In this document: positions 7,518 to 45,672 of the stretch, piece by piece
Layout of the letters: every line of letters starts with the position of its first letter
Position numbering within the stretch: position 1 is the stretch's first letter
Assembly: GCA_012964335.1 (NCBI GenBank)
Contig: DTUF01000033.1
Span: 27,306 to 91,305, forward strand
Direction of reading: 5' to 3'
Length of the DNA: 64,000 nt
From: Candidatus Poseidoniales archaeon
GTDB taxonomy: Archaea; Thermoplasmatota; Poseidoniia; Poseidoniales; Thalassarchaeaceae
Program-made: the position numbers and the translations under genes
The notes under the pieces: model-generated
Seen by the model: only the letters and a program-made list of their open reading frames with translations
What the model was told of the DNA's origin: nothing
Databases searched by the model: none

Positions 7518-7572
7518 GGTTGTCGCAGGTTGGCAGAGATGGTCAACATTGCGGCTATTCAATGAATACGAA

Positions 7573-13326: not shown

Positions 13327-16300
13327 TTACTCTACAGGCCAAGTTTTCCATTCATCGGTTGTACCGACCTCTCTGAAATAATTTTGACCACTACTTTCTG
13401 GCCATTCAACCCATTCAAAACCATCTGAAATAACCGGGTTTTCAACCACAAGCGGTGGGCCTTTCACTTCTTGTGTGCCTGAAACTTCGCTTTCAGGTAA
13501 TGAATTCACTCTCCTTTCAGTTTCTATTTCAAAATCTTCTTGCTCATCAACAACCACACCAGTATGATCCACTTCATCAAACAATTCTTGTTCTACTAAC
13601 ATACTCTCTGGCGGCCCTGCAGGAACCATTGGTTTCTTTACAAGATGTAATGCTTGAACAAAGAGGAGCAATACCATCAACGCTACAACAACTAAGGGTA
13701 ACCAAGTCAATCCGGTGGATGTTTCTCCTTCTGGTGTTGTTTCTACTTGCTGCTCCCCGCTATTGTTGACTAAATCACCTTCATTTATCGTCTGATTAAG
13801 ATTCGTAGTGTTTGAGAAAGATTGATTTTGGAAAGTATCGTTGTTGTATGAATTATTCTGGAAAGATTGATTTTGATATGTCTCATTATCAAATGTATTG
13901 TTTTGGTATGTGTTGTTCACATACGTGTTATTCACATATGTATTGTTGACATAGGTGTTATTCTCAGTATAATTCACTGATGAACTACCTCCACCACCAT
14001 TCCCATCAGGAATTTGCCCTGGAGCACATCCCTCAGCGTTGGGACTCGCTCCTGCAGATGTCCTAGAACACTCATCAATTAGGTCAGAAATACCATCACC
14101 ATCATCATCAGAATCTTCGTTCCAATCATGACAGCCATCAGCATCAAAATCCACAGTGGGGTTAGTAACCCACCCCATCACTCCAGTTGGACAGTTATCA
14201 TCTACATCTAGAATGCCATCCGCATCATCATCCAAATCTTCATCTGAATCTCTGCACCCGTCTCCATCGTAATCTGTAATACTTCCAGAATACCAACCAA
14301 CAGAACCGTTTGGACATGAATCATCGTAATCTTGGTAATGGTCATCATCATCATTGAGGTCTTCAGTAGCATCAAGACAGCCATCACCATCATTGTCAGT
14401 GATATTAGAGGATGTCCAGTTCAATTCACCACGGCCACAGGAGTCGTATTCATCTCTAATTCCATCATCATCGTCATCAACATCTTCAACACTATCTAAA
14501 CAACCATCTCCGTCATGATCAGTTGAAGGGGTTGATATCCAGCCCAAACTACCCTTGGGGCAAGAGTCTACGGTGTCGTTGACCGAGTCATCATCATCGT
14601 CTAAATCTTCATTAGAATCCTTACAACCATCTGTATCATAATCGGTTGTGCCATTAGAAGACCAGTTTAGGGTACCAGCCATGCATGCATCATTGCTGTC
14701 AAGAAGACCATCGTTATCATCATCCAAATCCTCAACATCATCTTTGCAACCATCTGTATCGTGGTCGGTGGTGTTGTTTGAGGTCCAACCTAGTACCCCC
14801 ATTGGGCAACTATCCACTGAATCTGCAATACCCTCTGCATCATCATCACCATCACAAATATCTCCTTGACTATCGCCATCATAATTTGTCTGGCTCGGAT
14901 TGTAAATTTGCTGACAGTTGTCGCGGTTGTCTGTGATTCCATCGGCATCTGCATCCGCACTCATGCGCGCTAAAAATATGTCATCACCATCTGATGAATT
15001 AAGTGAATCAAGACCGAAAGTTCGAGCAGATGTTGAATAATGTAATTGGCCAGCTGCAGCCACCGTTCCATTACCTGTCGCGGTAACTTGTCGGACGGTT
15101 GCACTACCAGTCGGTTGTGCCGCCCATTCCCATGTGCCTAATGTAGAGGCCATAGCAACAAAGCCAGTGCCTGCTGAAGAGAGTGTAGTAAGTCCAACAC
15201 TGATTACACCGTTTTTCTCCCCAACTACTACAACACTACTGTTCCCAACCATGTTGATGTCGTAAATATAGTCATTAGATACCCCGCCAAGAGCAATTGA
15301 CCAATCCCAAACACCGCTGTTGTTGAATTTCGCGACGAATCCATCTCTACCCCCCCCAGAGTTCACCGAGCAACAATTAGGGAATGATACCGAGTTCTCA
15401 AAATGGCCTGCTAGATAGATGTCGCCAGTTGATGTAGTTTCAATAGACTCGATGAAGATACAATAGGTGGAACAGGTGGGAGCCCCCAACCACCACATTG
15501 AGGAATTATTAGGAATGAGGCGAATCAGTGCACCGGGGTAATTTCCTGGATATGATGTCCCGCCACTTGGATTACTAAAATATCCCGACTTTGCCCAAAA
15601 CACCACACCCCCATTTGGATGCTCTGTCATCACTTCCATAGTTGCTGTACCTGAAGGTCCAGAGCGATGAAGGTTGATCCAACTACTTGTTGCCGCATGG
15701 CGCTGGGCGATGCAGATGTTCCAACTACCACTACCAGTAAATTGTGTCCCATGTATTGTGGTTGTACCCGAACAAGCCCCTGAAAAAAACACATCACCAT
15801 TCATATCTACGGCGATGTCGAGGTTGACATATTGACTGGTGCTGAATCCAATCGTATCAGCAGACATCCAACCATTGACAGGGGACCAACTTGCAACCAT
15901 GAATCCAGAACCACTATTACGACTTGTAAGACCAGAGATATCGACCCAACCATTCCAGTGAAAGCCAACCCATATCGTTCCATTCGGTCCAATAGCCATT
16001 GCCGCGAAATCCTTCTCATTGGTGTTGGAAGCTGTTGAACTACTCATTCTCGCCCCCATCTTAATTTGAGCAACATCAGTCCAAGTTCCGTTGTCACTAG
16101 CAACGGCCAAGAACAAGCGTGATTGAGTTGAGGTGAAACTTTGGTCAGCGATGGATGTGTTTCCACCAAGGACGTCATTGCCGAAGCGAAGATTGTGAGA
16201 AAATGAATTTGTGACACCCATCATAACGGTGGCTGTTGAATTCAATGGTTCAAGATCAATGATATCTTCTGTGCCAGTATGACCAATCATTTTGTAGAAT

Positions 16301-19952: not shown

Positions 19953-21623
19953 ATGGCTGGACCTTCAGAAGTAGAATTCCCTGGTAAGAAAAAACAGAGA
20001 ATACGAATGCGTGGCACGAAAAGAGCTTCTGATTCGGTACAAAAACGCTTGCGAAAGAACCTAGATGTTATGTTAGAAGAGCCACATTCAATTCTCCCTA
20101 CAATTTCTGGTCGAACCTCTCGTGGTTTTGGTAGGCCAGATAAATTAAAAGCTTGTCTTAAAGATATTGAGAAAGTCATCAATAAACGAGAAGATAGGTC
20201 ATGGCTGCACAAACGGATGGCGGCGAGAAAGGGGGACCTAATTGCTCGAGCATTTGCTGGTTGTTTAGCAGCTGCACATGAAGATGAGTTTGAAACCGTG
20301 GCGATATTCAAGCATCCCGTATACGGTTCCTCCTCCTTTATTCGCCGTGGTAGTGGGAGGCCTGCTCATTTACTCGGCTTGCAGATGCACACCCATACTC
20401 GATTTAGATTGCTTGCATGGGAAGAATTAGCAAGGTCAGGTTACTGGTTTTTTTCATGGTCAAAGGATTTGATTTGCACGGGGCTTGAACCAACACCACC
20501 TGAAGAATGGGTGACCGAAGGGCTTTCCTCTTCGCCCTTAAAATTTGAAATAAATGATGAAGGGGTTTGGCATGCGGGAAATAGTGCAAGCAACATAGTG
20601 ATGAATTATTCAAATGGCTTGGTCGCTGAAATTAGCCTTGATGAATTAGCAAAAAACAAGGAATCGTTTGTGCAAAGTATTGCTCTTACTATGTCACCAC
20701 CGCGATTATCTGAAATAATGGAAGTTGAAGCTAATTATCGTCCTAATGGGTGGCCAGAAGGCTTGGAAATTAATCAAGAAACAATGGATTCATTGGCTAC
20801 AGTAATCCAACACTGGTTGCGTCTAGAAATTCCTGACGCTGGCCTTAAAACCCTTCTTCACAGTGCTTTTTGTGAAGAATTAGAAGAAGGATTAGTACTC
20901 AAAGAGGACTGGTTTGCAAATGATGATAAGGAAGGATTCTTACAAGCCCTGCAAGGAAGTAAGATTGAGTTAGAAGCTGTATCAATATTAATTGACGCGT
21001 TAGATGGTGGGGTTAGAGTAGATGCTGCTGGAGAAGCACATTGGCTGGCTAGCGAAGTGGTTCTCATGGCTGATGATAGCGCCCATTCCCTGCTCAAAGC
21101 GGCGTGGGGTAAATGCGGTTTAGATATCCTTGAGCAAATGTTTGACCTCACTGGAGATAAGGCCGAAAATATCTATGAACAACAACTGAACAGCCGTAAA
21201 GCCTTCAGCGGATTCTTAAGAAATCTTGACGAAAAACAGAGTAGTGTAAGAATGATGAGGAAATTCCCTTACGATTCAGAATCGCTACCTTCACCACTTA
21301 GTTTTGCTGATTCATTAATCAAAAGAGCCCACTCTGAAGGGGTCGGAAAAACCACAACAATGGCTAGGAAATCTGGTGGGGGGAGAAAATCTTCAATGGG
21401 TTGGGCATGGGTTTGCGTTCATGGTAAAGATGAGGGGGAATCGTGGCACTATGAACCAACAGTTCGCGACCTTGGAGGGGATTGGGTGCCAGCGCTAAGA
21501 TCGTTATGGGAAGCTAGTCAGATTATCATCAATGATGAAGGTAGTGATGATTATGTCAAGGCTATGGAATCTCTACGGAATGTTACTGGTACTATGGAAA
21601 ATCTACCAGAGCTGGTTCTCTAG
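19953..21623 (+). CDS. Hypothetical 556-aa protein with a strongly basic N-terminus. No recognisable domain.
   Basis: Long intact ORF. N-terminus KKKQRIRMRGTKRASDSVQKRLRK. I saw no catalytic or binding motif. Confidence 0.7.
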   Translation: MAGPSEVEFPGKKKQRIRMRGTKRASDSVQKRLRKNLDVMLEEPHSILPTISGRTSRGFGRPDKLKACLKDIEKVINKREDRSWLHKRMAARKGDLIARAFAGCLAAAHEDEFETVAIFKHPVYGSSSFIRRGSGRPAHLLGLQMHTHTRFRLLAWEELARSGYWFFSWSKDLICTGLEPTPPEEWVTEGLSSSPLKFEINDEGVWHAGNSASNIVMNYSNGLVAEISLDELAKNKESFVQSIALTMSPPRLSEIMEVEANYRPNGWPEGLEINQETMDSLATVIQHWLRLEIPDAGLKTLLHSAFCEELEEGLVLKEDWFANDDKEGFLQALQGSKIELEAVSILIDALDGGVRVDAAGEAHWLASEVVLMADDSAHSLLKAAWGKCGLDILEQMFDLTGDKAENIYEQQLNSRKAFSGFLRNLDEKQSSVRMMRKFPYDSESLPSPLSFADSLIKRAHSEGVGKTTTMARKSGGGRKSSMGWAWVCVHGKDEGESWHYEPTVRDLGGDWVPALRSLWEASQIIINDEGSDDYVKAMESLRNVTGTMENLPELVL

Positions 21624-29672: not shown

Positions 29673-30668
29673 ATGCGCATAGAGGGGAGCCGGGTCTTAG
29701 TAACAGGTGGGACTGGTTCAATTGGTTCTGAAATCGTTCGGCAATTGTTGAACCGTAACCCTTCTCATGTGGTGATTTTCTCACGTGATGACTCTAAACA
29801 CTTCTATTTCCAGCAAGAACTTGCAAAGCACGATAACATCACTTTCATCATTGGAGATGTGCGAGATAGGGAAGCTTTGGCTCGGGCTTTTGTAGGTGGA
29901 ATTGACATTGTGATTCATGCTGCTGCGCTAAAGCATGTGCTTATTTGTGAACAAAACCCAACCGAAGCGGTGAAAACTAATATTTTGGGGACTCAAAATG
30001 TTGTTGATATGGCTAAGGAAAATGGGGCTAAGGTGATGATGACCATTTCAACTGACAAGGCTGTCGCACCCACATCAACGATGGGGGCAACCAAATATGT
30101 TGCAGAGAAACTGACTATCGATGGTAATCTAACTGGCACCACTAACTGCGCGTGTGTTCGTTTTGGTAATGTTCTTGGAAGCAGGGGGTCAGTTATCCCT
30201 GCAATGATAAAGGGTATTCGTGAAAGAGGAGAAATTTGGATTTCAGATGAAAATATAACCCGTTTTGCTATGCCAATACCAGACGCGGCTACTTTGGTGA
30301 TTGATGCCGTTGACATTTGTGCTGGGGGGGAAATTTTCGTGTTGAAGATGAAATCATTTAGCCTCAAACAACTTGTAGAAGTAATGAGAGGAATGCCATT
30401 TGCTGCATCTGGTTTCGATATAGATGTTCGTGGACTTATTCGTGCTGAAAAGTTGCATGAAGATCTAGTGACTAGTGACGAAATTGGTCGGTTGTGGGAA
30501 TCGGATTCACACTATATTGTCGCACCCCCAGTTGGTGACTGGAAACCTAGCACTGGGTTGTCAAAAATTGAACTTGACGATTATAATTCAAGTAGCGGTT
30601 CAGTATTTTCTAATGATGAGTTAGCACAGCATATTGAAGAGTGTGTTGTTGCTCTTGGCCTTGATTGA
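29673..30668 (+). CDS. UDP-sugar 4,6-dehydratase of the PseB/FlaA1/CapD family.
   Basis: VTGGTGSIGSE, IHAAALKHV, STDKAV, GATKYVAEK and RFGNVLGSRGSVIP. Confidence 0.8.
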   Translation: MRIEGSRVLVTGGTGSIGSEIVRQLLNRNPSHVVIFSRDDSKHFYFQQELAKHDNITFIIGDVRDREALARAFVGGIDIVIHAAALKHVLICEQNPTEAVKTNILGTQNVVDMAKENGAKVMMTISTDKAVAPTSTMGATKYVAEKLTIDGNLTGTTNCACVRFGNVLGSRGSVIPAMIKGIRERGEIWISDENITRFAMPIPDAATLVIDAVDICAGGEIFVLKMKSFSLKQLVEVMRGMPFAASGFDIDVRGLIRAEKLHEDLVTSDEIGRLWESDSHYIVAPPVGDWKPSTGLSKIELDDYNSSSGSVFSNDELAQHIEECVVALGLD

Positions 30669-30677
30669 TGTGAGATT

Positions 30678-31514
30678 ATGATTGGCGTTACCGGGGCGAC
30701 CGGATTCATTGGTTCTCATCTAATGAATGCGCTTGGTAACAATGGACTTCAAATAGACTTGAGAAATTCAACAAATGAAGAAGTCCGCAATTTAATCAAT
30801 AGACATAATTGCCATACGATTGTTCATTTAGCAAATCCAACGCCATCAAATTTTGATGAAAATAGTGGGGAGATGAGAGAAAAAGCCAGAAATCTTGCTA
30901 ATCGTTTGATTGAGATTATTGAACCAATGCAAAACATTCACATCCTTGCTCTTTCTTCAATTAGAGTTTATCCAAATGGGTTGCCGTTTTTTACTAGTAA
31001 TTCCCCTTTGAACCCAATTGATGATTATGGGCAGGGGAAAGTCGAGATGGAAGAGGCTTTCAAATCATCAAAACATACGGTTACGGCGTTGCGTTGTTCG
31101 AGTGTTCAAGGGGTTGGCCAAGACGGTTTGCCTCGAGGAATTGTTGGTATTTTTGCCAAACAACTTCATGAAAATGGTAAACTGAGTATAATGGGTGATG
31201 GTTTAGCAACCAAGGATTTGATTCATGTTCAAAATTTGGTTTCCTTGTTAGTTAAACTTGCATCAATGGGTGCGCCTGACACTGATGTGTTTCTTCCTGT
31301 TGGTGGGGGGTCGCCCCTCACTGTCACCGAACTTGCTAAATTATTCACCACTGGAACTGATTGTAAAACAGAAACTATTGGACCGGCAAATTTTGAATTA
31401 TCAGGCCATGTTGATAATTCTGAAATCACATCCCATGCTGATTGGACTCCAACGTGGTCTGTTGAAAATATGATTGAAGAATCTCTCAAAGCTACGAGAG
31501 GTGCGATGCAATGA
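30678..31514 (+). CDS. NAD-dependent sugar epimerase/reductase (extended SDR).
   Basis: VTGATGFIGSH and YGQGKVEME. Its stop overlaps the next start as ATGA. Confidence 0.7.
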   Translation: MIGVTGATGFIGSHLMNALGNNGLQIDLRNSTNEEVRNLINRHNCHTIVHLANPTPSNFDENSGEMREKARNLANRLIEIIEPMQNIHILALSSIRVYPNGLPFFTSNSPLNPIDDYGQGKVEMEEAFKSSKHTVTALRCSSVQGVGQDGLPRGIVGIFAKQLHENGKLSIMGDGLATKDLIHVQNLVSLLVKLASMGAPDTDVFLPVGGGSPLTVTELAKLFTTGTDCKTETIGPANFELSGHVDNSEITSHADWTPTWSVENMIEESLKATRGAMQ

Positions 31515-33643
31515 TTGGAGCAAGAAACTCCACGACAATTATCCACCTATTCAGAGGACAAAATGATGAGGTTGTGAACGCAGTTCAACGATACGAAGAA
31601 CAGTATGGTGTAGGCCCAATTTGGGTAATTCAGGTTCCTGCTAGAATTTGTTTGGCCGCGGACCACACCGATTATTGGCCTGGGTTTACCTCAGAACTTG
31701 TTGTGATGGCAAGCGATTCACAAATTATGACCGCAGTTATTGGACCCCGTGATGATGGGTTTGTTTATTGTAATTCAATGGATGAGGAGTTTGACCCATG
31801 GGAAGAAAATTTAGGAGAAAATATCCCTATTGGTGATGAGTGGTTAACATGGCTTGAGATGTTGGGGGCACCAATACCAAATTGGTCAAATTATGTGATG
31901 GGTTCTGTTAGACATACACAGATGTTTGAAGAAGTGAAATTTGGATTCAATATGTCAATCACATCTACTATCCCACCAGATTCTGGGGCTTCTTCCTCCT
32001 CCGCATTAGCAATTTGTGGGATGTTTGCAATTCGATTATCAAATCAACTTGCAACAGATGCTGAAGTCATGACGTTCACTACTGCTGAGGCTGAATGGTT
32101 TTGTGGCACTAGAGGTGGCATGATGGACCATGCTACAATGATGTACAGTTGTAGTGATTCTGTATTGAGATTGACCTTCAATCCATTTACCCAAAAAGCA
32201 ATTGAATTACCAAAGGAGATGGGTGGTGTGAAATTTACAACGCTGTTTACACATCCATCAAAGAAGGGTGGGGAGATAAAAAGAGCTTTCAACGAACTTG
32301 CTTTCGTGGCCCGCGAAGTTATCCCAAGATTAGTACCAAAAGATTGGCAAGATAATTGGGGAGAGGTGGCCGAAGAATTACCTGAAAAAATGTCTCGGGA
32401 GGATATAACCAACCGTTGGCTGGATGATTGTGTTGTATTTGAAAAAATGTATCCTGCCCTTTTTGAGACTGATTTTAAAATCAAGGTGGCGAATAGATTT
32501 AGATTCGCAATGCGTGAATTAGATAGGAGTAAACGTATGCAATCCTTACTAACAAGCGGTAATTGCACCGCTGAACAAATTGGCAACATTATGAATGAAG
32601 CATGGGTTGATGCTGGTGATTTATATGACATAAGAACCCGCGAAATGGATCAATTTGCAAACCAAGCACGAAAGATTCCTGGCGTTCATGGAATCAAAGT
32701 AATGGGGGCTGGATTTGGTGGTAATCTACTATTACTAACTGACAATGACGCTGACCTCTCTTCATTAGGCAAGGGGAGAATCCAAGAATGCTCTGCTGGA
32801 CCAGCCGCATCAATAATTGATGCTAAAGAGATGATGCCTACACTAAATAATTCAACGCCGCCACTAGCAGCGGTATTGTTGTGTGGCGGCAAAGGTAGTC
32901 GAATGTTAGAACACGGAATTGCTACACATAAGCCACTATTAAATTTGAATGAGGTGCCTTCAACTAAACTTGTCATTCAACAACTACTTAATTCACAACT
33001 AAATTTTTCGCAAATATTAGTTGTTGTTCCGCCAGGAAGAGAACCTGATTATGAGGAAGTTTTAGCTGGCTTAGGTGTGAAAATTGTTACCCAACACGAA
33101 GCATTGGGAACGGGAAATGCTGTGCATTGTATTATTGATGAATTGTTATCCCCAGTTGAACAAGTGTATGTCTCATTTGGTACTCAACCTTTGATTAGAA
33201 CTACAACAATTGAAGCTGCTTTGGCGCATCATTTGGCTTCGGGGGCAGGGTTCACTCTGCCAACCACTCTTCGGAAAGACCCCTATGCGCCATTAATTAG
33301 AGATGAAATGGGTAAAGTTATTGGTTCAATAGAAACCTATCTTGATAACGCTGAAATGCCAACCTTTGGTGAAACAAATGTTGGTGGTTATTGGAGTAGT
33401 AAATACGCATTGGAAAAAGTGTTGGGCGAACTACATTCAAACCTTTATGATGAAGAAAATAAGCGATATAACACAAACTCTGGAGAGTTAGGCTTCCCAA
33501 ATGAGATGACAAAGGGTTGTCTTGAAGCGGGTCTTGGAGTCGAGGGAATTGCAATTGCTGACCCTGAAGAGGTGGTTGGCCTCAAAACCCCCGAACACAT
33601 CGGAGAGGTTGAGCAGTGGCTAAACAAAGGTTGGCGGAGGTGA
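31511..33643 (+). CDS. Bifunctional fusion: N-terminal GHMP (galactokinase-like) sugar kinase plus C-terminal sugar-1-phosphate nucleotidyltransferase.
   Basis: Kinase motifs VPARICLAADHTDYW, PPDSGASSSSALAICG, GGMMDH and MGAGFGGN. NTP-transferase motifs LLCGGKGSRM, HKPLL and GTGNAV. Confidence 0.8.
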   Translation: MIGARNSTTIIHLFRGQNDEVVNAVQRYEEQYGVGPIWVIQVPARICLAADHTDYWPGFTSELVVMASDSQIMTAVIGPRDDGFVYCNSMDEEFDPWEENLGENIPIGDEWLTWLEMLGAPIPNWSNYVMGSVRHTQMFEEVKFGFNMSITSTIPPDSGASSSSALAICGMFAIRLSNQLATDAEVMTFTTAEAEWFCGTRGGMMDHATMMYSCSDSVLRLTFNPFTQKAIELPKEMGGVKFTTLFTHPSKKGGEIKRAFNELAFVAREVIPRLVPKDWQDNWGEVAEELPEKMSREDITNRWLDDCVVFEKMYPALFETDFKIKVANRFRFAMRELDRSKRMQSLLTSGNCTAEQIGNIMNEAWVDAGDLYDIRTREMDQFANQARKIPGVHGIKVMGAGFGGNLLLLTDNDADLSSLGKGRIQECSAGPAASIIDAKEMMPTLNNSTPPLAAVLLCGGKGSRMLEHGIATHKPLLNLNEVPSTKLVIQQLLNSQLNFSQILVVVPPGREPDYEEVLAGLGVKIVTQHEALGTGNAVHCIIDELLSPVEQVYVSFGTQPLIRTTTIEAALAHHLASGAGFTLPTTLRKDPYAPLIRDEMGKVIGSIETYLDNAEMPTFGETNVGGYWSSKYALEKVLGELHSNLYDEENKRYNTNSGELGFPNEMTKGCLEAGLGVEGIAIADPEEVVGLKTPEHIGEVEQWLNKGWRR

Positions 33644-33647
33644 TTAA

Positions 33648-34871
33648 ATGGCTGTACTTCTATATCTCACCGACCGTTGGCCATATCACCCTGGTGAGTC
33701 GTTTTTAACGAGGGAAATACGTGATTTAGCACCACATTTTGACAAGATCTTATTGCTCCCACTTGCTGAAATTATTGATGGGGACCGAGCACCTAGAGAA
33801 TATCCTGAAAATGTTGAGGTGTTAACAGAATTAAGAGAGGAAATTTGGAAATTGTGGGGGAAAAGTGGTTCTTTCTCAAGACTGGTTGGAGGGATTTCTA
33901 GACCGCTAATTTCTTGCAAAGAAAGTTTGCTATCAAAACCGTTCAAACCAAGGGAAGTTATTGGTGAAATCGCCCAAGTAAGGCTAATCTGTAATCAAAT
34001 AGAGAAAAAAACCGATATCAAAGCTGTTGATGCTTGTGCTTCTTTTTGGTTGAATAGGGGTGCCTCTGTTTGTGCAGAATTAAAACGACGCAATCAGCAT
34101 CTCGTTGCCTTTTCACGAGGCCATGGGGGAGATATTTATTCTGAAAGGAGAAATATGGCAAACTTACCACTTCAATCAACATCATTGAAAAATCTTGATG
34201 GAATTATCCCTGATTCAGCGGCAGGCGTTGATTACCTTGTCAAAAAATTCCCAAGTGTGAAGGAAAAAATTTCAGTTGGAAGGTTGGGTGTCGATAACAG
34301 TGAAGTTGTGAATAGTTCAACGGATGGAATATTGAGATTACTTTCTGTTTCCACTCTAGTGCCGGTTAAACGGGTTCACTTAATCGCTGAAGGATTGAAA
34401 ATGTGTTCGCGGGATGTGATTTGGACACACATTGGGGGTGGGGAATGTCTCGATGATGTTGAACAATCTCTGAAAAATATGGGTGAAAATATTGAGGTAC
34501 GTCTGTTAGGCCAGCTACCCCACCATGATGTTTTAGAATATTATCAAGATAATTCTGTTGATTTATTCATTAATGTCTCAAGTAGTGAAGGCTTACCAGT
34601 TAGTATAATGGAAGCGTTTGCAAACGGCATTCCTGTTATTGCAACTGCTGTTGGCGGTTGTCCTGAAATTGTTAGTGAGGATTGTGGATTTTTGTTAAAG
34701 CCGGATTTTGATGCAATAGAATTAGCAGGTATTATTGAAAATTATAGCATAAACTCTACTAAAATGCGAGTTTCCGCTTTAGAAAAGCAACGTGATGAAT
34801 ATTCGTCAGAAAAGAATCAAACCGCTTTCGCAAAATTGATTATCTCAAAAATTAACCAACAAAAGAGTTGA
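33648..34871 (+). CDS. Glycosyltransferase family 4 (GT-B).
   Basis: SSSEGLPVSIMEAFANGIPVIATAVGGCPEIV (the EX7E region). Confidence 0.8.
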   Translation: MAVLLYLTDRWPYHPGESFLTREIRDLAPHFDKILLLPLAEIIDGDRAPREYPENVEVLTELREEIWKLWGKSGSFSRLVGGISRPLISCKESLLSKPFKPREVIGEIAQVRLICNQIEKKTDIKAVDACASFWLNRGASVCAELKRRNQHLVAFSRGHGGDIYSERRNMANLPLQSTSLKNLDGIIPDSAAGVDYLVKKFPSVKEKISVGRLGVDNSEVVNSSTDGILRLLSVSTLVPVKRVHLIAEGLKMCSRDVIWTHIGGGECLDDVEQSLKNMGENIEVRLLGQLPHHDVLEYYQDNSVDLFINVSSSEGLPVSIMEAFANGIPVIATAVGGCPEIVSEDCGFLLKPDFDAIELAGIIENYSINSTKMRVSALEKQRDEYSSEKNQTAFAKLIISKINQQKS

Positions 34872-35144
34872 TTATTCTTCTTCGGATGAAGCAGCAGTCT
34901 CAACAACGGGCGGGGCTGCTCGCTCACGGAATGCCGATATTACCTTTGGTTCAGTTGAGGTTGATGGATCAATCTGCTCAATGCTTGCAATTTTCATTGC
35001 TCGGCGTGTGACTCTGTGCCGGCTTCCAAATGATGATTCTATACGATGACGTGCTTCATCTTCATCATTAGCCACAACATCTTGTGTAAATGACTGAATT
35101 ATCTTTCCATTGGGGAACTTTCCCACTACTCGGTAAGCCTTCAT
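34872..35144 (-). CDS. rplX: Ribosomal protein LX (eL20 family).
   Basis: MKAYRVVGKF...FTQDVVANDEDEARHRIESSFGSRHRVTRRAMKI matches archaeal LX. The internal ATG 35144 avoids overlap with the divergent protease start. The track ORF extends to 35324. Confidence 0.75.
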   Translation of the reverse strand: MKAYRVVGKFPNGKIIQSFTQDVVANDEDEARHRIESSFGSRHRVTRRAMKIASIEQIDPSTSTEPKVISAFRERAAPPVVETAASSEEE

Positions 35145-35196: not shown

Positions 35197-37656
35197 ATGA
35201 CGCGAGGGCCTAGAGTCGTTTTCCTCGCACTCATTCTAATTATCCCACTACCACCATTACCACATGATGAACAGCAAATATTCGGTGAAATAGTACTCAA
35301 TTCTGACGACCCTTGGGATGTCAAAGGATGGAACTCATTGGTGGAACAGGGAATGACTCCTTTACGTCAATTAAATGCACATGAAATGTTAGTGTGGGCA
35401 CCTATTGATGAAGGAGACATACCACTTAGAATTACTGAATTTAGGGGATTAATAGATGAATATGAAACATATATTGTTGTGTTAGAACCCCGTTTAGATG
35501 TAAAAGAAAAGGATGAGATTAAAACCACTTTAAACATGATTGGATTGAATCCTAAAACGGTTTTCTCACCAATGGAAGGCTCCCCACTATCAGAAATTAT
35601 CCAAATCACCCCGAGCAATACATTTTCGGATTGGTGGCAATTTGTTGAGATTGTACATGGTATACATTGGGTAGAGCCAGTGCTTGAAACTGTTGGAAGA
35701 AATGATATCGCTGCGGCAATTATGCAACACGGAAATATTTCAGGCCAGCCAGCATGGTTGTTTGGATTAGATGGTTCTGGAGTAATTATTTCTAATGCAG
35801 ATTCTGGAATTGATCGAGATCATGCTTGCTTCCGCGAAGCAACAGAACCTGGCGCTTCGGGTAGTGAATGGAATAACGCAACTGGAACGCCAGGACAAAA
35901 TCATCGAAAAATTGTCTTCTTCAACGATACAATAGATGATTGGGATTCCCCGAATAATCAAAATTATCGTCATGGAACTCATGTAGCAGGAAGTTTAGCA
36001 TGCCGCTCTATTTGGGAATTTTCAGCAGAAAACAAAGGAGATTGGGTAAATGCTACCCCAGGCGAGGGGACTTCGATTTCTCATGGGGCTCGTCTTGTGA
36101 TTGAAGATGTTGTAGATGATGATGGTTGGCAAATACCAGAAATTGGTGAATTATTTTGGGAAGCTAGTTCACATGGTGGGGTAATTCGCTCTGATTCATG
36201 GGGGGATGACAGTACAGAATACACACTGCGAACAAGTAAATTTGATTCTTGGCTTTTCTCAGTACCATGGTCGGTTTCTTTTGTAGCACCAGGTAATACT
36301 GGGGCTGAGGTATTAGAACCTGCAAATGGATTGAATGTTGTATCTGTTGGTGCTTCGGCAAAAGACGGGACTAATGATTTGTGGACGCTCACCCCGCGTC
36401 AATCAACTGCTCAAGGAAGAATGGGTGTTACTATTGTTGTACCAGGAGAAACGATAATTTCTGCTAAAGGTGATGGGTTACATGATTCCAATAATGATGG
36501 TTGGAGGAGTTCAACGGGAACCTCAATGGCTACACCACAAGCAGCGGCTTTTGCAGCCGTTATACAACAAATGGTTGAAACTGGTTGGATTACTGGAAAT
36601 GATAGTAAGGTAGTAGTTTCATCAAATTCACTAAGACCTGATTGGGCTGAATCTGTTAATAATAATCTCACAGAAGGTAATCTATTATTGGCTAGTGGTT
36701 TTACTCCATCGGGACCACTTATCAGAGCGTTGATGGTATTGAGTGCAGATTCACTTGAAGGTGGTAGGCAAGCGGAGTTGACGCTTGGTGTGGCTCCTGA
36801 TAATCAACAAGGATGGGGGCGCCCAAATCTATCAAATCTTGTAGATTTCGAATATCTTAACAACCAAATGAATAATTCCACTGTAGACCCCACCACAAAT
36901 ATTTGGATTCATGATTCATTTAGAATGGTTGACAATAATTGGCAAAGCATGATTGAAAGTTGGGTAGAGGGAAATCCACTAGATTCTGTTTCAAACCACC
37001 ACTGGAAGGGGGAGGGGGCGGTGGGTCCTTTCCTTTCAACAACGCAGGATGTTGTTTGGAAAATGCCACTCGTGAATGGTGAAGATTTTGATGCCCGTCT
37101 TGTTTGGAACACCGCCCCAAATATTGATTCACGAGATGATTTAGATCTTGTCGTTACTTTGCCTGATGGGGAAATTTTCCTAGGAAATGATATGGTTGGA
37201 GATGGTGTTAGAGAAAATGTTGAGACAATAGAGGGGGTTCACATACCCTCTGAAAGTCTCAAGGATTTTGAGTATCTTGAATTGCGAATTATCGGACACC
37301 AAATAAACACGGGGCCTGAAAATGATGTGGTAGGATTGAATGGTGATAAGATTGGTTTTGCTTTAGCTGTAAAAGGGGTTGACAGAGAAGAGGTGGAAAC
37401 GATGACTCCTTGGTCAATAATAATTCAAGATGAAGGGGTAAATGTAGAGCAGGGTGGTGGTTCTTTGGATAAGTATTGGTTTGCTGTAATGATAATTATT
37501 GTCGTGTTTACAATCGGATTAATCATTATTGAAAGATATAAAATATCTACTCAAATGGAAGTTGATGAATTTATGACTGAAGGTGAACCTTCAAACCATG
37601 ATAGCGACTCCCTGCCAATAGCGGTAGCACCGCATATAGGTGATGACAATGAGTGA
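35197..37656 (+). CDS. Secreted, C-terminally membrane-anchored subtilisin-family (S8) serine protease.
   Basis: Signal peptide RVVFLALILIIPLPP. Catalytic Asp in NADSGIDRDH, His in HGTHVAGS, Ser in GTSMATPQAAA. C-terminal TM YWFAVMIIIVVFTIGLIII. Confidence 0.88.
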   Translation: MTRGPRVVFLALILIIPLPPLPHDEQQIFGEIVLNSDDPWDVKGWNSLVEQGMTPLRQLNAHEMLVWAPIDEGDIPLRITEFRGLIDEYETYIVVLEPRLDVKEKDEIKTTLNMIGLNPKTVFSPMEGSPLSEIIQITPSNTFSDWWQFVEIVHGIHWVEPVLETVGRNDIAAAIMQHGNISGQPAWLFGLDGSGVIISNADSGIDRDHACFREATEPGASGSEWNNATGTPGQNHRKIVFFNDTIDDWDSPNNQNYRHGTHVAGSLACRSIWEFSAENKGDWVNATPGEGTSISHGARLVIEDVVDDDGWQIPEIGELFWEASSHGGVIRSDSWGDDSTEYTLRTSKFDSWLFSVPWSVSFVAPGNTGAEVLEPANGLNVVSVGASAKDGTNDLWTLTPRQSTAQGRMGVTIVVPGETIISAKGDGLHDSNNDGWRSSTGTSMATPQAAAFAAVIQQMVETGWITGNDSKVVVSSNSLRPDWAESVNNNLTEGNLLLASGFTPSGPLIRALMVLSADSLEGGRQAELTLGVAPDNQQGWGRPNLSNLVDFEYLNNQMNNSTVDPTTNIWIHDSFRMVDNNWQSMIESWVEGNPLDSVSNHHWKGEGAVGPFLSTTQDVVWKMPLVNGEDFDARLVWNTAPNIDSRDDLDLVVTLPDGEIFLGNDMVGDGVRENVETIEGVHIPSESLKDFEYLELRIIGHQINTGPENDVVGLNGDKIGFALAVKGVDREEVETMTPWSIIIQDEGVNVEQGGGSLDKYWFAVMIIIVVFTIGLIIIERYKISTQMEVDEFMTEGEPSNHDSDSLPIAVAPHIGDDNE

Positions 37657-38653
37657 GAGACTGTACATCGGGATAGATTTGGGAACTTTTCAATCGACGA
37701 TTTCTGCGTCGAATGGAACGAGTGAAAGTGTATTGACAGTGGTTGGGAAACCTAAGGATCCCATCGCTCGTAACTTCTTGAAAAGAGATACTCTGTTTGG
37801 AAGCGAGGCTTTGAAAAATAAGTTGGCTTGTAATTTGTATTACCCTCTTTCAGCAGGAGTGGCACAAGATGATGAAAACAATTTGGCAGCGGCAAAATCG
37901 TTTGTTACGCACTTAGTTGAAGCAGTTGACCCCGAAGAATTCGATGAGGTTTTTGGTGTAATTTGTTCGCCATCTCATATTTCATTTGTTGACAAGAGCA
38001 ATTTAGTAAGTATTCTACGTGGTCAAGTTAACGCAATTATGGTTGTTAGCGAGCCATTTGCAGTTGCGTTCGGGCTTGATGAAATTGGGGGAAGTATTGT
38101 TGTTGACATCGGCGCGGGAACAACTGATGTTGCTCGTATCTATGGAACATTCCCTAGTGAAGAAGACCAAGTTACAATCTCAGAAGCTGGAGATTGGATT
38201 GATAATCGTTTGATGGAACTGGTTGCTAAGAAATTCACTGGTGCTCAATTAACAAAAGACATGGTTCGCCAATGGAAAGAAGCAGGGTCATATGTTGGTG
38301 GAGATGAAAAAGAACAGATGGTTGAACTTTCTGTTGATGGAAAGAAGCAAGTTGTTGATGTTGGAGATTTAGTTCAAATCGCATGTGAAGAATTAATACC
38401 ACATATTGTAAGGACTGTGAAGGGAATTGTGGCAGGTGCTGATCCCGAGTATCAATCATTACTTCGTAACAACATCATTCTCTCTGGTGGTGGTTCATTA
38501 ATTGGTGGTTTAGCCGACCGCGTGGCTGATGAACTAGCAGATATTGGTGATGTGCGTGTTTGGTGCGCTGATGACCCAATGATAAGAGTGGCTGATGGTG
38601 CGTTAAAACTGTCAATGGTGATGCCAGACGACCAATATACAGCAATCAGTTAA
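37649..38653 (+). CDS. Actin-superfamily filament ATPase, MamK/MreB-like.
   Basis: Actin motifs IGIDLGT (phosphate 1), VVSEPFAVAFGLD (connect 1), VVDIGAGTTD (phosphate 2), IILSGGGSLIGGL (adenosine) and DPMIRVADGA (connect 2). GGTGAT lies 4 nt upstream of ATG 37649, and that ATG overlaps the protease stop as ATGAGTGA. Confidence 0.85.
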   Translation: MSERLYIGIDLGTFQSTISASNGTSESVLTVVGKPKDPIARNFLKRDTLFGSEALKNKLACNLYYPLSAGVAQDDENNLAAAKSFVTHLVEAVDPEEFDEVFGVICSPSHISFVDKSNLVSILRGQVNAIMVVSEPFAVAFGLDEIGGSIVVDIGAGTTDVARIYGTFPSEEDQVTISEAGDWIDNRLMELVAKKFTGAQLTKDMVRQWKEAGSYVGGDEKEQMVELSVDGKKQVVDVGDLVQIACEELIPHIVRTVKGIVAGADPEYQSLLRNNIILSGGGSLIGGLADRVADELADIGDVRVWCADDPMIRVADGALKLSMVMPDDQYTAIS

Positions 38654-38758
38654 TGCTAATTCGGTGACCTTGAAAAGGGTTCAAGAATGACTCGCTTTGA
38701 CTAATGCCAAGGTGAAAGTTCAAGAATGGTTCTCTCGCGATAGGGTATTTGATTGAGT

Positions 38759-39925
38759 ATGGGGCCAGCGAAGACCACTAATGGAAAAGCTACTGCAGGG
38801 AATGATATAGACCGTGCGGCATTGGCAGGAATGCTGTCTGGATATGGGCCAGAACAACTTGTTGATGAAGTAATTACTGCTTGGGAGGAATTGGCTTCTG
38901 CAAACAAAGAATTAGCAAATTCAAACCAAAGAAACAGAGTGATAGAACTAGATTTGTCTGAACGAGAAGAATTGGGTGCACCAGACCGGGCTCGTTTAAT
39001 GAAAGTAGATGAAGATCTAAGAGATAGAGAAGCAAGAATTATTCATCTCGAAAGAATGCTTGATGATACAAGAAGGGAAAAAGAAGCAATTGCTAATTCA
39101 GTGGGAGCGATTAGAATTGACGAATTGGAACGGAATGAGAATGACCTTTCAGAAAAAGTAGAATCACAAACAAATATAATTGGTGAATTAGAAGCGAAAT
39201 TAGACCAATTAGTAGATGCATTGGAAAAGGCTGCTGAAGCTGGTTTAACTTCAATTACTGCTGATGAAGTCAGACACCTAAATCATGAATTAGAAGATGC
39301 ACATCGTAAAATTGAAGCTGAGCAAATAGAAAACAACACTGTTGCAGAAGAGAGAGACAAACTTAGAGAAATGGTAACACAAACTAAGTCTTTGTTGGAG
39401 CAAAGAGATCTCCGCCTGAAAGAATTGGATGGGCAAATGCAGAGAATGATGGATGGGCCTCGCTCTATTTCTGCAGAACATGATTATCTTGTCGAGCAAA
39501 TTGAAGAATTAAAACGACGCTTACTTGAAAGAAACAGAGAGTATGAAGCTCTTCGAAGGAGAGAGAGGAGATTGCATAGGGATGTCTTTGAGCGAGATGA
39601 AAGAATTCAACAAATGCAACTCACGATTAGTGATATTGAAGGTGGTTTGTCAGATCGCACAGCAGAACTGAAAAGTTTAGAAGAAGTTTATGAGAAAATG
39701 GCAGCTGAAGTTGATGGGTTGCGTAAATCTGAAAGAACTAGGGGTGTAGTTAGTGGTGCATTCCAAGATTCTCTTGGTGTTTTGCGAACACATGAACAAA
39801 GTAAAGCAAGACGTGAGGGGTTAGGAATTGATGTTGATGACTCAATACCAGAACCGGGGGAAGGAAGTTCACCTGGTGGTTCTGCTGCACCTGCTCTGAA
39901 AGATATTGATGAACTTGATGAATAA
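38759..39925 (+). CDS. Long coiled-coil protein (~389 aa), hypothetical.
   Basis: Almost entirely charged, heptad-like sequence rich in E, R, L and K (e.g. LRDREARIIHLERMLDDTRREKEA, KLDQLVDALEKAAEAG), with an acidic tail DIDELDE. No enzymatic motif. Confidence 0.75.
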   Translation: MGPAKTTNGKATAGNDIDRAALAGMLSGYGPEQLVDEVITAWEELASANKELANSNQRNRVIELDLSEREELGAPDRARLMKVDEDLRDREARIIHLERMLDDTRREKEAIANSVGAIRIDELERNENDLSEKVESQTNIIGELEAKLDQLVDALEKAAEAGLTSITADEVRHLNHELEDAHRKIEAEQIENNTVAEERDKLREMVTQTKSLLEQRDLRLKELDGQMQRMMDGPRSISAEHDYLVEQIEELKRRLLERNREYEALRRRERRLHRDVFERDERIQQMQLTISDIEGGLSDRTAELKSLEEVYEKMAAEVDGLRKSERTRGVVSGAFQDSLGVLRTHEQSKARREGLGIDVDDSIPEPGEGSSPGGSAAPALKDIDELDE

Positions 39926-39966: not shown

Positions 39967-40779
39967 TCATGAATTCATTTCTGTGATGAATGTTTGAAGA
40001 GTTGTTTGTAGCTCATGGGAATCTGAAAATCCTTCTGTTAAATTCCCAGTAACTATCCAATCCGCACCAGCATCAACTGCTATGCTCGCTGATTTACCAT
40101 CTCTAATTCCACCACCAACAAGCAGAGTTAGGTTACAAGATTTTCTTACTGCTCTAATTAATTCAGGTGAAACGGGTTGATTAGCACCACTACCCGCTTC
40201 TAAGTAAATTGTAGAAAAACCATAAGATTCGGCACATATTGCATAACTTGTAATAAGTTCAATATCATTTTTTGTGATTAGATTCGCTTCGCCAACTTCG
40301 CCGACCTTACCACCAGGGGCACAAACAACATAACCCATCGAAATTGGAGTTACATTTGCTTGTTTTATCGGGGTTGCGCCTTTTAGTTGCTCTTCAATTA
40401 GAAACTTTGGTGATGTGCTATTCATCAACATCATGAAAGTGATTCCGTCTGCTGCGGGTGAAAATGCATTTGCTGCAGCAGGAAATAAAACCACAGGTAT
40501 TTCCCACATTTCAGAATCTGATGAAGAATCTTGAGAAGCATTCCAAGAACATAATTCGAGGGTTTCTTGAATTGCTTTTACTGTTTCATGGACATTATTG
40601 CTATCAGTTCCTGTTGAACCTCCAACAAATATCATTTTACTTCCAGCAATTACTGCAGCAACACATCTTTTAGCTGCTTCTTCACTAGTTTGAGAATCTG
40701 GATCAATCAAAATAATATGTCTAGCAACACTAGAAGTGTGAACATAGTTTAACAAATCAGACCCCTCTGAAGACCACAT
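39967..40779 (-). CDS. Geranylgeranylglyceryl phosphate synthase (PcrB/GGGPS family).
   Basis: ILIDPD, IFVGGSTG, IYLEAGSGA, and LLVGGGIRDGKSASIAVDAGADWIVTGN. Confidence 0.8.
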   Translation of the reverse strand: MWSSEGSDLLNYVHTSSVARHIILIDPDSQTSEEAAKRCVAAVIAGSKMIFVGGSTGTDSNNVHETVKAIQETLELCSWNASQDSSSDSEMWEIPVVLFPAAANAFSPAADGITFMMLMNSTSPKFLIEEQLKGATPIKQANVTPISMGYVVCAPGGKVGEVGEANLITKNDIELITSYAICAESYGFSTIYLEAGSGANQPVSPELIRAVRKSCNLTLLVGGGIRDGKSASIAVDAGADWIVTGNLTEGFSDSHELQTTLQTFITEMNS

Positions 40780-44463: not shown

Positions 44464-45672
44464 ATGGAGGTGGGCGTGTCTATTGAACGAGCGATTGAAT
44501 TAGCCAATGAAATCCCTCTTTTATTTGGGACAGAAATCCAATCCCTCGCAGATGCTCATGATGTGGTGTTAGCTAAATCATTAGAGTCAATGGTCGATGA
44601 TCCACGGTTCGATAATTCGGCAATGGATGGTTGGGCAGTGAAAGAAGCGGATTGCACAAATTCCAATTCTAAATTAGAAATTATTGGCACTATTCAAGCT
44701 GGGAGTTCAGAAGAAATAGAAGTAAAACATGGCCAAGCATGTCGTATAATGACTGGTGCACCAATACCACCAGGCGCAGATTCAATCGTTATGATAGAGG
44801 ATAGCGTTGTCATGGATGGATATGTTACTATCAACGGTCCCGCTCGCCCTCATTTCATAAGGAAGCAAGGAGAAAACATAACTGCAGGTGAAGTTGGTTT
44901 ACAATCTGGTTCAAAGTTAAAACCAGCACATTTAGCGATGGTTGCAATGATGGGATACGCGGAAATCCCTGTTATCAAACCACCAAAAATTGCGATTATA
45001 GGAACTGGTGATGAATTAGTAGAACCAGGTCAGCCCTTACAATCCGGCCAAATTTATGAATCAAATACAACGGCTTTAGTGGGTTTAGTTTCGGAAATTG
45101 GTTGTGAACCAGTCAAATATCCATTTGTTACTGATGATTTAGATGGTCTAAGAAAGACATTTGATTTGGCCGCATCAGAATGTGATGCAATTCTCACAAG
45201 TGGTGGTGTGAGTATGGGTGAATGGGATTTAGTCCGTCGTTTGATGGAAGAAGAAGGAGAAGTAAAATTCTGGAGAGTTCTAATCAAACCAGGGGGCCCA
45301 CTGTTGTTTGGTTCTTGGAAAGGTACACCTCTTTTTGGTTTACCAGGCAATCCAGTAAGTAGTCAAATTGTATTTCTCTCTATTGTGGTTCCATGGATTT
45401 CTAATTCATGTGGATATCATCCAACCCATGGTCCGAAATTGTATGATAAAGTTAGAGTAAAATTGTTGTCAGCAGCAGCGGGTACAAAGAGTAAAGTCAC
45501 ATTACGCAGGATTCAAATTATAGAGCAGGGTAACATTCTTGTTGGTGATGTCCCCAAAAATCAAGGTAGTGGTAATTTACGAAGTATGGTTAATTGTAAT
45601 GGCTTGACTTTTCTTCCAATTGGTGTTGATGGTAAATCGGGCGACATTATTGATGCGCTTTGGTTGAGATGA
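44464..45672 (+). CDS. moeA: Molybdopterin molybdenumtransferase.
   Basis: NSAMDGWAV, IMTGAPIPPGADSIVMIED, IGTGDELVEPG, TSGGVSMGEWD, IKPGGPLLFG and GLPGNPVSS. Confidence 0.88.
   Translation: MEVGVSIERAIELANEIPLLFGTEIQSLADAHDVVLAKSLESMVDDPRFDNSAMDGWAVKEADCTNSNSKLEIIGTIQAGSSEEIEVKHGQACRIMTGAPIPPGADSIVMIEDSVVMDGYVTINGPARPHFIRKQGENITAGEVGLQSGSKLKPAHLAMVAMMGYAEIPVIKPPKIAIIGTGDELVEPGQPLQSGQIYESNTTALVGLVSEIGCEPVKYPFVTDDLDGLRKTFDLAASECDAILTSGGVSMGEWDLVRRLMEEEGEVKFWRVLIKPGGPLLFGSWKGTPLFGLPGNPVSSQIVFLSIVVPWISNSCGYHPTHGPKLYDKVRVKLLSAAAGTKSKVTLRRIQIIEQGNILVGDVPKNQGSGNLRSMVNCNGLTFLPIGVDGKSGDIIDALWLR

Follow-up and report, generated by a model that had tools for sequence, protein, structure and literature searches.

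Organization of the locus

The DNA described here is a 64-kb stretch (the window) of contig DTUF01000033.1, from an archaeon of the order Poseidoniales. The subject of this report is a string of three co-oriented genes in it, encoding a membrane-anchored S8 subtilase, an actin and a coiled-coil protein. An earlier note, made from the sequence alone, had read the three genes as a candidate cytoskeletal module. The positions and co-orientation of the open reading frames (ORFs), the overlap between the S8 and actin genes, the GGTGAT Shine-Dalgarno (SD) sequence and the gap of 105 nt between the actin and coiled-coil genes were confirmed in the sequence. The genes and signals are located as follows.

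35197-37656, + strand: membrane-anchored S8 subtilase, 819 residues (Pfam Peptidase_S8, PF00082, E 3.9e-22)
37579-37595, + strand: first copy of a cis-element, GAAGGTGAACCTTCAAA, 66 nt upstream of the actin ATG and containing the inverted repeat GAAGG-TGAA-CCTTC
37621-37633, + strand: hairpin GCGGT-AGC-ACCGC in the 5′ leader of the actin gene, directly 5′ of the SD and translated in the S8 tail as AVAP
37639-37644, + strand: SD-like GGTGAT, 5 nt before the actin ATG
37649-38653, + strand: MamK-like actin-fold ATPase, 334 residues from the ATG (NCBIfam, PDB, AlphaFold2 and Foldseek)
38663-38688, + strand: degenerate extra copies of the element, GGTGACCTTGAA and GGGTTCAAGAATG, in the spacer between the actin and coiled-coil genes (read from the sequence)
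38712-38724, + strand: second copy of the cis-element, GTGAAAGTTCAAG, 47 nt upstream of the coiled-coil ATG
38759-39925, + strand: coiled-coil rod protein of a new family, 388 residues from the ATG at 38759
39872-39922, + strand: conserved C-terminal peptide of the rod protein, PGGSAAPALKDIDELDE, a candidate docking motif at the end of a variable disordered linker

The host is archaeal as judged from its GGGP synthase and ribosomal protein L18Ae, and homologs place it in the Poseidoniales, family Thalassarchaeaceae (Marine Group IIb, MGIIb). The locus was compared with the best 80 of 422 tblastn-confirmed actin stretches in species-representative genomes, in which the loci labeled L001-L010 are the subclade of the window (actin identity at least 88%). 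Protein families were assigned with the Pfam and NCBIfam models and RNA families with Rfam, and AlphaFold2 models were compared with known structures by Foldseek. No description of this actin or its partner in Marine Group II/Poseidoniales was found in open-access papers and bioRxiv, in agreement with the earlier statement that no characterized system of this kind is known.

A MamK-like actin

The actin gene has an alternative GTG start at 37640. Among the NCBIfam models the one for MamK (NF040964) ranks first, matching the full length of the protein with 338.6 bits (E 3.6e-101), below its curated cutoff of 400. The other scores are 206.6 bits for BeeR (cutoff 530), 45 for salactin (400), 18.5 for ParM (417) and 16 for crenactin (630), and the MreB models give 76.8, 68.7 and 60.2 bits against cutoffs of 293, 365.75 and 515, respectively. 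The broad Pfam model MreB_Mbl matches at 79.6 bits, above its gathering score. Sequence matches in the PDB are to MamK (E 2.7e-66), the BeeR filament protein (6e-36) and MreB (7e-13). The motifs listed in the earlier note (VVGxPKD, YPLxxGV, VVSEPFxVxxGLD, VDIGAGTTD, EDQVT, IACExLxP, PEYQ and GGGSxIxGLA) all align residue-for-residue with MamK (5jyg). E135 in the SEPF motif and D153 in VDIGAGTTD align to the ATPase residues E143 and D161 of MamK.

The AlphaFold2 model of the actin has a predicted local distance difference test (pLDDT) score of 91. Its best Foldseek match is the filament-state MamK subunit (5ljv_A), with template modeling (TM) scores of 0.94/0.96 and an rms distance of 1.5 Å. 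Lower TM scores are obtained for BeeR (0.87), MreB (about 0.82) and eukaryotic actin (about 0.80). The first β-strand starts at residue 4, and the N-terminal domain of the BeeR type is absent.

In a distance-based, neighbor-joining (NJ) tree with 100 bootstraps and PDB sequences as anchors, the Poseidoniales actins form a clade with 100% bootstrap on a long branch. The distances from the window actin are about 0.96-1.0 to KSB1-type proteins, 1.24 to MamK, 1.41 to BeeR and 1.87 to MreB, the most distant anchor. The actin is not placed inside MreB, Hsp70 or FtsA in this tree. The deep placement, and with it the sister group, has a bootstrap of 11%, and no claim is made for a KSB1 sister relationship or for a direction of transfer. 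The scores from NCBIfam, the PDB and the fold comparison relate the actin to MamK and not to MreB, ParM or crenactin, as had been proposed.

Close homologs of the actin, with 73-100% identity, come only from Poseidoniales; they represent two families, Thalassarchaeaceae (MGIIb) and Poseidoniaceae (Marine Group IIa, MGIIa), and are usually annotated 'MreB'. The best 80 stretches are likewise all of the Poseidoniales type, with both families represented. An exhaustive search of 1.8 billion cluster representatives places the family in a single 50%-identity cluster; the next relatives are 38-45% identical and include proteins of KSB1 candidate-division bacteria and actins of ANME-2/Methanosarcinales. 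These results point to an undescribed, Poseidoniales-specific subfamily of MamK-like actins. The actin is also the most conserved protein of its neighborhood. Its MGIIa and MGIIb versions are 73-75% identical; the corresponding values are 52-57% for GGGP synthase, 46-53% for the coiled-coil protein and 43-51% for L18Ae. Neither the actin gene nor the coiled-coil gene of the Poseidoniales type was found on viral contigs, and a viral origin of the pair was rejected on this basis. Poseidoniales carry the pair as a core feature that is chromosomal and specific to the order.

Two loci of the set are unusual. A 4-kb contig (L062, DLTU01000102.1) carrying the actin and coiled-coil pair, with an actin of 74% identity, is binned in a metagenome-assembled genome (MAG) of 'Candidatus Microthrix', probably by mis-binning. 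The MAG ARS60 contains two contigs (L033/L034, NYZH01000047 and NYZH01000020) that each carry the module, which suggests a strain mixture or a duplication.

The coiled-coil rod protein

The length of 389 residues given earlier for the coiled-coil protein becomes 388 from the ATG, or 390 if translation starts at the TTG at 38753; the end of the gene at 39925 was correct. The AlphaFold2 model contains three long helices (residues 31-160, 168-231 and 237-355) followed by a disordered acidic tail. The hydrophobic residues have a period of exactly 3.5 residues, with z scores of 3.8, 4.8 and 8.1 for the three helices and 9.3 overall (1.1 for the actin as a control). The breaks between the helices coincide with the conserved motifs AEAGLTS and GPRSIS. 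The protein had been described as an almost pure coiled coil with an acidic tail, and the predicted helices, their period and the disordered tail bear this out. As modeled, it is a true coiled-coil rod, with heptad-periodic segments flanked by a head and a tail in the manner of an intermediate filament.

Two regions of the protein are conserved in particular. Residues 233-281 form a near-invariant core, GPRSISAEHDYLVEQIEELKRRLLERNREYEALRRRERRLHR-VFERDE. The C-terminal peptide has the pattern PGG-[ST]-x(2)-P-x-hydrophobic-x-acidic run, which is kept in both families, in the form PGG-S/T-A-x-P-x-L/M-x-D-I-D-D/E in MGIIb and PSPGG-S/T-G-D-P-V-V-F-E-D-E-D in MGIIa. A terminal peptide on a flexible linker holds filaments in several other systems: ParR on ParM, arcadin-2 on crenactin and FtsZ on FtsA.

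The protein has no Pfam family and no relative in the PDB, either by profile or by fold, and no recognizable DNA-binding domain was found with Pfam, NCBIfam or the AlphaFold2 model. NCBIfam matches to SMC proteins, at about 30 bits against cutoffs of 567-729, are coiled-coil noise. The findings on the two genes correct their routine database labels, 'MreB' and 'chromosome segregation ATPase'.

A cis-element shared by the actin and coiled-coil genes

An oriented element with the consensus GTGAA-SS-TTSAAR is located upstream of both the actin and the coiled-coil genes. It was discovered in the aligned 130 nt upstream of the actin ATG and in the spacers between the two genes, and all 80 loci were then scanned with GTGAASSTTCAAG, allowing up to 2 mismatches. 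The version upstream of the actin gene, (G/C)AAGGTGAACCTT(C/G)AA, lies at -60 to -67 from the ATG in 69 of 77 loci, and the version GGTGAA(G/A)GTTCAAG precedes the coiled-coil gene in 77 of 79. It is on the coding strand at both positions in every case. Elsewhere in the ~800 kb of locus flanks there are 71 matches, mostly with two mismatches and with both strands counted. The scan finds no copy of the element for the S8 gene. The outer pair of the inverted repeat in the actin copy switches from G..C in MGIIb to C..G in MGIIa.

In the window the element is found at 37583 and 38712, with one further copy inside the coding sequence of uvrA that is taken as chance. A general promoter was rejected for the window, with only these two sites and the one within uvrA. 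The degenerate extra copies are shared by the window, L001 and L004, and represent a subclade-specific duplication. Several MGIIb lineages have 0.4-3.1 kb inserted between the actin and coiled-coil genes, and the element stays with the coiled-coil gene. The inserted DNA (L016, L018, L020, L022, L024, L028, L030) encodes a copper protein of the plastocyanin/cupredoxin type, a protein with a weak DUF4190 match and ORFs without a family (for example L028, 6469-9356).

In 22 of 23 lineages a GC-rich hairpin of 4-9 bp separates the element from the SD, and in 17 of them it ends 8-16 nt before the ATG. Its stems differ among lineages (GCGGT/ACCGC, TCCGC/GCGGA, TCCGG/CCGGA, GCGCA/TGCGC and others). 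The mean hairpin score is 9.0, compared to 6.5 for shuffled sequences, and GGTGA is kept at the SD position in nearly all loci. The hairpins of the two families do not align in register and were scored sequence by sequence; the only structure that RNAalifold recovered from the aligned leaders was the inverted repeat of the element itself. Hairpins with such differing stems are what would be expected for a conserved RNA leader structure. Neither leader has a match in Rfam.

Each of the two genes has its own expression signals. From these signals and the common oriented element, the actin and coiled-coil genes are most likely co-regulated, being switched on together by one factor or by a special promoter type.

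The S8 subtilase and its overlap with the actin gene

In addition to its match to the family model, the S8 protein has an intact catalytic triad, D202/H259/S441, in the contexts DSG-202, HGTH-259 and GTSMA-441. A hydrophobic signal or anchor is read at its N terminus, and a single transmembrane helix is located near its C terminus (residues 757-784, nt 37465-37548). The protein is much less conserved than the actin: its MGIIa and MGIIb orthologs share 34-41% identity, those of the actin 73-75%. The MGIIa orthologs are longer, about 1080 residues, and their tails carry a conserved P-[PA]-F motif, mostly ending in E-N-E (for example L039, 5780-5887).

The S8 stop codon TGA (37654-37656) overlaps the actin ATG (37649-37651) by 8 nt, as ATGAGTGA. 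This overlap is confined to L001-L010. In other lineages the S8 stop is located 50-230 nt upstream of the actin ATG; two loci, which contain a gap or are spaced more widely, are the exceptions. The cytoplasmic tail of S8 has 35-39 residues in the window clade, compared to 5-7 basic residues in many MGIIb lineages. The tail of the window subclade is longer by about 37 residues, and its codons, about 785-819 (37549-37653), cover the leader of the actin gene. The first copy of the cis-element lies within this frame and encodes EGEPSN, and the extended frame translates the element, the hairpin and the SD as EGEPSNH, AVAP and IGDD. These peptides are conserved in the window clade because the DNA is constrained, and the tail has its sequence because it is dictated by the actin hairpin and SD.

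The S8 gene of the window subclade has lost its stop, such that the former spacer is now read as tail codons. The overlap is a derived state and not an order-wide trait, because it is found in L001-L010 only and the stop loss runs across the actin gene's own leader. The earlier note had taken the overlap and its SD as evidence of co-translation; with the S8 frame simply reading through the motif, hairpin and SD of the actin gene in one subclade, this argument is not supported. The locus provides a clean natural case in which a coding frame overprints the 5′ region of its neighbor and mimics translational coupling.

A short motif common to the S8 tail and the C terminus of the coiled-coil protein was sought. 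Only 'P..F' was found, a match that a few percent of tails would show by chance and that is not significant.

Conservation of gene order

The window proteins were compared with the 80 loci by tblastn. The three genes are bordered by two housekeeping genes on the opposite strand.

34872-35144, - strand: ribosomal protein L18Ae (LX), divergent from the S8 gene (Pfam PF01775, NCBIfam NF001981)
39967-40779, - strand: GGGP synthase of archaeal lipid synthesis, convergent with the coiled-coil gene (Pfam and NCBIfam)

The true start of L18Ae is the methionine of MKAYRVVG, and the longer TTG ORF, which reaches 35324, extends the gene too far. Wherever the flanks suffice, essentially every locus of MGIIa and MGIIb has the order L18Ae(-)/S8(+)/actin(+)/coiled-coil(+)/GGGP synthase(-). 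The coiled-coil gene is directly downstream of the actin gene in 79 of 80 loci, the one exception being a contig end. The conservation of the three-gene order that the earlier note had asked for is therefore present in both families, but unrelated housekeeping genes are conserved equally well. Synteny alone cannot tie the three genes together, because L18Ae and GGGP synthase are equally syntenic; it shows that the region is stable, not that its genes cooperate. A conserved third gene after the coiled-coil gene was looked for and rejected: GGGP synthase abuts in most loci, and the inserts vary (DUF4126, a TM2-like ORF and others).

A proposed two-gene unit and its alternatives

We favor, with restrained confidence, a functional unit of two genes, a filament-forming actin of the MamK lineage and a coiled-coil rod partner that are co-regulated, with the S8 protease outside the unit. 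The fold, the ATPase residues and the extreme conservation of the actin suggest that it would polymerize with ATP. The rod protein, whose architecture is that of an intermediate filament, would dimerize or oligomerize through its coiled coil, and could bind the actin filament by its C-terminal peptide and/or the invariant core and thereby bundle, anchor or regulate the filament. Both genes would be driven through the same operator/promoter element. In this reading the actin and the coiled-coil protein would interact physically. The S8 protein is probably a conserved neighbor and not a functional member; it is most simply read as an extracellular membrane-anchored protease for protein scavenging by a heterotroph, located upstream of the actin since the ancestor of the order. 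The role of the pair is most likely in general cell organization (shape maintenance and/or chromosome segregation) and not in an organelle or a plasmid, because the pair is chromosomal, single and order-wide, with no cargo genes nearby.

Several points weigh against the two-gene unit. The cellular role is a reasoned guess, and the order-wide adjacency of the actin and coiled-coil genes is weak evidence of a link between their products. The coiled-coil protein is restricted to Poseidoniales, with no homolog outside the order, and the deep placement of the actin clade has an NJ bootstrap of 11%. The theme of an actin with a coiled-coil neighbor is absent from three of the six contexts of distant relatives (L085, L086 and L087; see below). 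The element could function at the RNA level, or could be a promoter type of genes beyond the 64 kb and ~800 kb scanned. Finally, the S8 gene is adjacent to and co-oriented with the actin gene, upstream of it, in every locus with enough flank, and given this adjacency and the P-x-F tails of MGIIa, a link of S8 to the pair may exist.

The constant position of S8 is also the main attraction of a three-part transmembrane module, in which the S8 tail is tethered to the filament, the cytoskeleton positions the surface enzyme, and S8 and actin are co-translated. The C-terminal transmembrane anchor and cytoplasmic tail of S8 are conserved, the MGIIa tails have the P-[PA]-F motif and an acidic end, and the window's subclade has the 8-nt overlap with the SD. 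We nevertheless consider such a module unlikely, as the overlap is limited to L001-L010 and comes from a stop loss over the actin leader, many MGIIb tails are just 5-7 basic residues and motif-free, the S8 gene evolves fast, has no cis-element and is missing next to all six distant actin relatives, the synteny of L18Ae and GGGP synthase equals that of S8, and the likeness between the S8 tail and the coiled-coil protein is the chance-level 'P..F'. The grouping of three genes in the earlier note is not supported on these points. A version in which the S8 tail and the coiled-coil C-terminal peptide both dock on actin across the membrane, with the coupling in the window subclade as reinforcement, is quite unlikely; if true, it would have an archaeal cytoskeleton position a nutrient-scavenging surface enzyme. 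The tail of ParR binds ParM, and the order motif, actin, motif and adaptor-like protein with a C-terminal peptide recalls parC-parM-parR. The pair might then serve in DNA segregation of the ParMRC/salactin type, with the coiled-coil adaptor binding the palindromic motifs as centromere and operator and linking the chromosome to the filaments. The element is indeed an inverted repeat, and salactin, which is archaeal and related to MamK, has an effect on chromosome partitioning (PMC10746226). On the other hand, each site has one or two copies of the motif and not an iterated array, the coiled-coil protein has no recognizable DNA-binding domain, the ParM model gives 18.5 bits against a cutoff of 417, and the strict orientation of the motif suits a promoter or operator better than a centromere, all of which makes this alternative rather improbable as well. 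The source annotations, 'rod shape-determining protein MreB' and 'chromosome segregation ATPase', would have an ordinary MreB acting alone as a rod-shape determinant beside an unrelated gene, for example an SMC-like fragment. The Pfam MreB_Mbl match (79.6 bits) and the similarity to the MreB fold (TM score about 0.82) agree with this. It is nonetheless very unlikely: the NCBIfam MreB models give 60-77 bits against cutoffs of 293-515 while MamK gives 338.6, no anchor of the tree lies farther away than MreB (1.87, compared to 1.24 for MamK), mreC, mreD, rodZ and the peptidoglycan machinery are missing from the window of this archaeal host, the SMC matches are noise (about 30 bits against 567-729), and the common cis-element ties the actin and coiled-coil genes together.

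The Poseidoniales are among the most abundant archaea of the sunlit ocean, are uncultured, and have a cell biology that is almost unknown. A two-gene unit as described here would add an archaeal actin family beside crenactin, the Asgard actins, salactin and volactin, and would show that actins of the MamK type are general-purpose filaments, either older than magnetosome function or freed from it. It would also supply a two-protein system with a candidate docking peptide and a regulatory motif that can be tested heterologously.

Comparison with other actin systems

A prokaryotic actin with a coiled-coil partner is an already known theme; new are the actin subfamily, the partner family and the regulatory element. 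The earlier note had likened the coiled-coil protein to partners of the MamJ and ParR kind. It is a credible conserved neighbor of the actin, but it has no homology to any known partner, and the likeness stays an analogy.

MamK (5jyg, 5ljv) is the best match in both sequence and fold, with 36-37% identity and E values of 1e-66 to 1e-101. The two proteins share the signature motifs and ATPase residues, both are without an N-terminal extension and without the membrane helix of the MreB type, and MamK works with acidic or coiled-coil partners. In comparison, the Poseidoniales actin scores below the cutoff of the MamK model, forms a separate long-branch clade and belongs to a non-magnetotactic archaeal host, and the coiled-coil protein of the window is unrelated to MamJ, McaA/B or the Mad proteins. 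No magnetosome genes (mam/mad) are found in the 64 kb, and the same housekeeping context surrounds the actin in the 80 loci. Coiled-coil Mad proteins work with MamK/Mad28 (PMC12748827). The pairing of crescentin with MreB, and of Mad20/23/25/26 with MamK/Mad28, resembles the present one in having heptad-periodic segments with short linkers, a head and a tail, together with an actin of the bacterial type. There is no sequence relationship to these proteins, however, and only the Poseidoniales family has the C-terminal peptide and the invariant core of 50 residues.

The second-best match is BeeR, the three-stranded tubular actin of Verrucomicrobiota (8r2n), which is also related to MamK and found in non-magnetotactic hosts. 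BeeR is defined by a disordered N-terminal domain of 30-50 residues (PMC11929497). The window actin has neither this domain nor the BeeR insertion of roughly 12 residues, and scores below the BeeR cutoff.

Crenactin and the arcadins of Thermoproteales have the closest logic: a chromosomal archaeal actin beside the SMC-like coiled-coil protein arcadin-4 and the terminal-peptide protein arcadin-2. The C-terminal peptide of arcadin-2 reportedly binds crenactin. There is, however, no homology between the two systems; the partner is of another family, and crenactin belongs to a eukaryote-like lineage, compared to the MamK lineage here. The crenactin model gives 16 bits against 630, and the neighbors of the window actin are the S8 protease and a novel coiled-coil protein. 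An association of arcadin-4 with crenactin is cited in PMC10869688.

Salactin and volactin are, like the window actin, archaeal actins outside the crenactin/Asgard lineage, and the Pfam/NCBIfam matches to them are weak (38.9-45 bits). Salactin has been reported to be closest to MamK (PMC10746226). Both are far more distant from the window actin than MamK is (45 bits against a cutoff of 400), the long charged N-terminal tail of salactin is absent from the window actin, and no conserved coiled-coil neighbor has been described for either.

Two further comparisons are with the ParM/Alp type II systems and the MreB elongasome. A ParM/Alp assignment is opposed by the score of 18.5 bits against 417, the chromosomal core context and the absence of viral copies, and no iterated, centromere-like repeat array was found at the locus. 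As for a link to the elongasome, the window of this archaeon contains no mreCD, rodZ or peptidoglycan genes.

Gene contexts of distant actin relatives

Six loci of distant relatives of the actin were examined for gene context. A coiled-coil association recurs at three of the six (KSB1, ANME-2 and L084), each time with a non-homologous partner, and no S8 protease is found next to the actin at any of the six. A hidden Markov model of 69 Poseidoniales coiled-coil sequences was searched for homology to the partners of the distant actins (the KSB1 extensions, the ANME-2 protein of 1941 residues and neighboring ORFs); the best E value was 0.23, and homology was rejected.

In the KSB1 locus (L081, 8001-14791, JAFGMA010000026.1), an N-terminal coiled coil, a long acidic disordered linker and a C-terminal MamK-like actin are fused in one long protein; fusions of this kind are the nearest relatives of the actin outside the Poseidoniales. 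The fusion is followed by a second actin in tandem, three Roadblock/LC7 genes and a Ras/Arf-like GTPase, and the cluster resembles an as yet undescribed bacterial module for polarity or the cytoskeleton. In an ANME-2 cluster archaeon (L083, 8001-14925), a MamK-like actin gene is followed 25 nt later by the gene for a coiled-coil protein of 1941 residues, rich in E, K and L, the N-terminal region of which contains three repeats of YENFDEL(G/D)SFF-x-(T/S)LKK. This could be another archaeal pair of an actin and its partner. L084 has helical neighbors of 1204 and 541 residues.

In L085 (1-4507), a MamK-like actin with 41% identity to that of the window lies within a chemotaxis (che) cluster, in the order CheA/CheW, CheC, CheD, actin, a 291-residue protein and CheC. 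L086 is a cluster of the magnetosome type, in which a CDF transporter, an FtsA-like gene and a second actin occur, and nothing notable lies beside the actin in L087.

Other genes of the window

Magnetosome (mam/mad), partition and peptidoglycan/cell-wall genes are absent from the 64 kb, in line with the earlier description of the surroundings and of a planktonic archaeal host, and mreC, mreD and rodZ are likewise absent from the window. The remainder is ordinary chromosome, including RFC, FtsY, prefoldin, pyrF, purL, uvrA, moeA, deoxyhypusine synthase and sugar-nucleotide/glycosyltransferase genes.

A MoeA homolog (MoeA_N and MoCF_biosynth, E 2e-36) is located at 44464-45672, about 4.5 kb downstream. 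MoeA is reported to be absent from most Poseidoniales, and a repurposed MoeA (Glp) acts in actinobacterial cell division (PMC11733289). An ORF of 1498 residues (13327-17823, - strand), downstream of the gene for an FG-GAP repeat protein (6258-7637), has only a weak match to thrombospondin type-3 repeats, and an ORF of 556 residues (19953-21623, + strand) has no Pfam family; their products may be surface proteins.

The region between prefoldin and L18Ae (29673-34871) encodes a Polysacc_synt_2 dehydratase, an epimerase, a GHMP-kinase/nucleotidyltransferase fusion and a GT1 glycosyltransferase. In the MGIIa reference locus L039, an ORF of 208 residues, presumed to be prefoldin alpha, directly abuts L18Ae. 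On this comparison the sugar block looks like a variable surface-glycan island.

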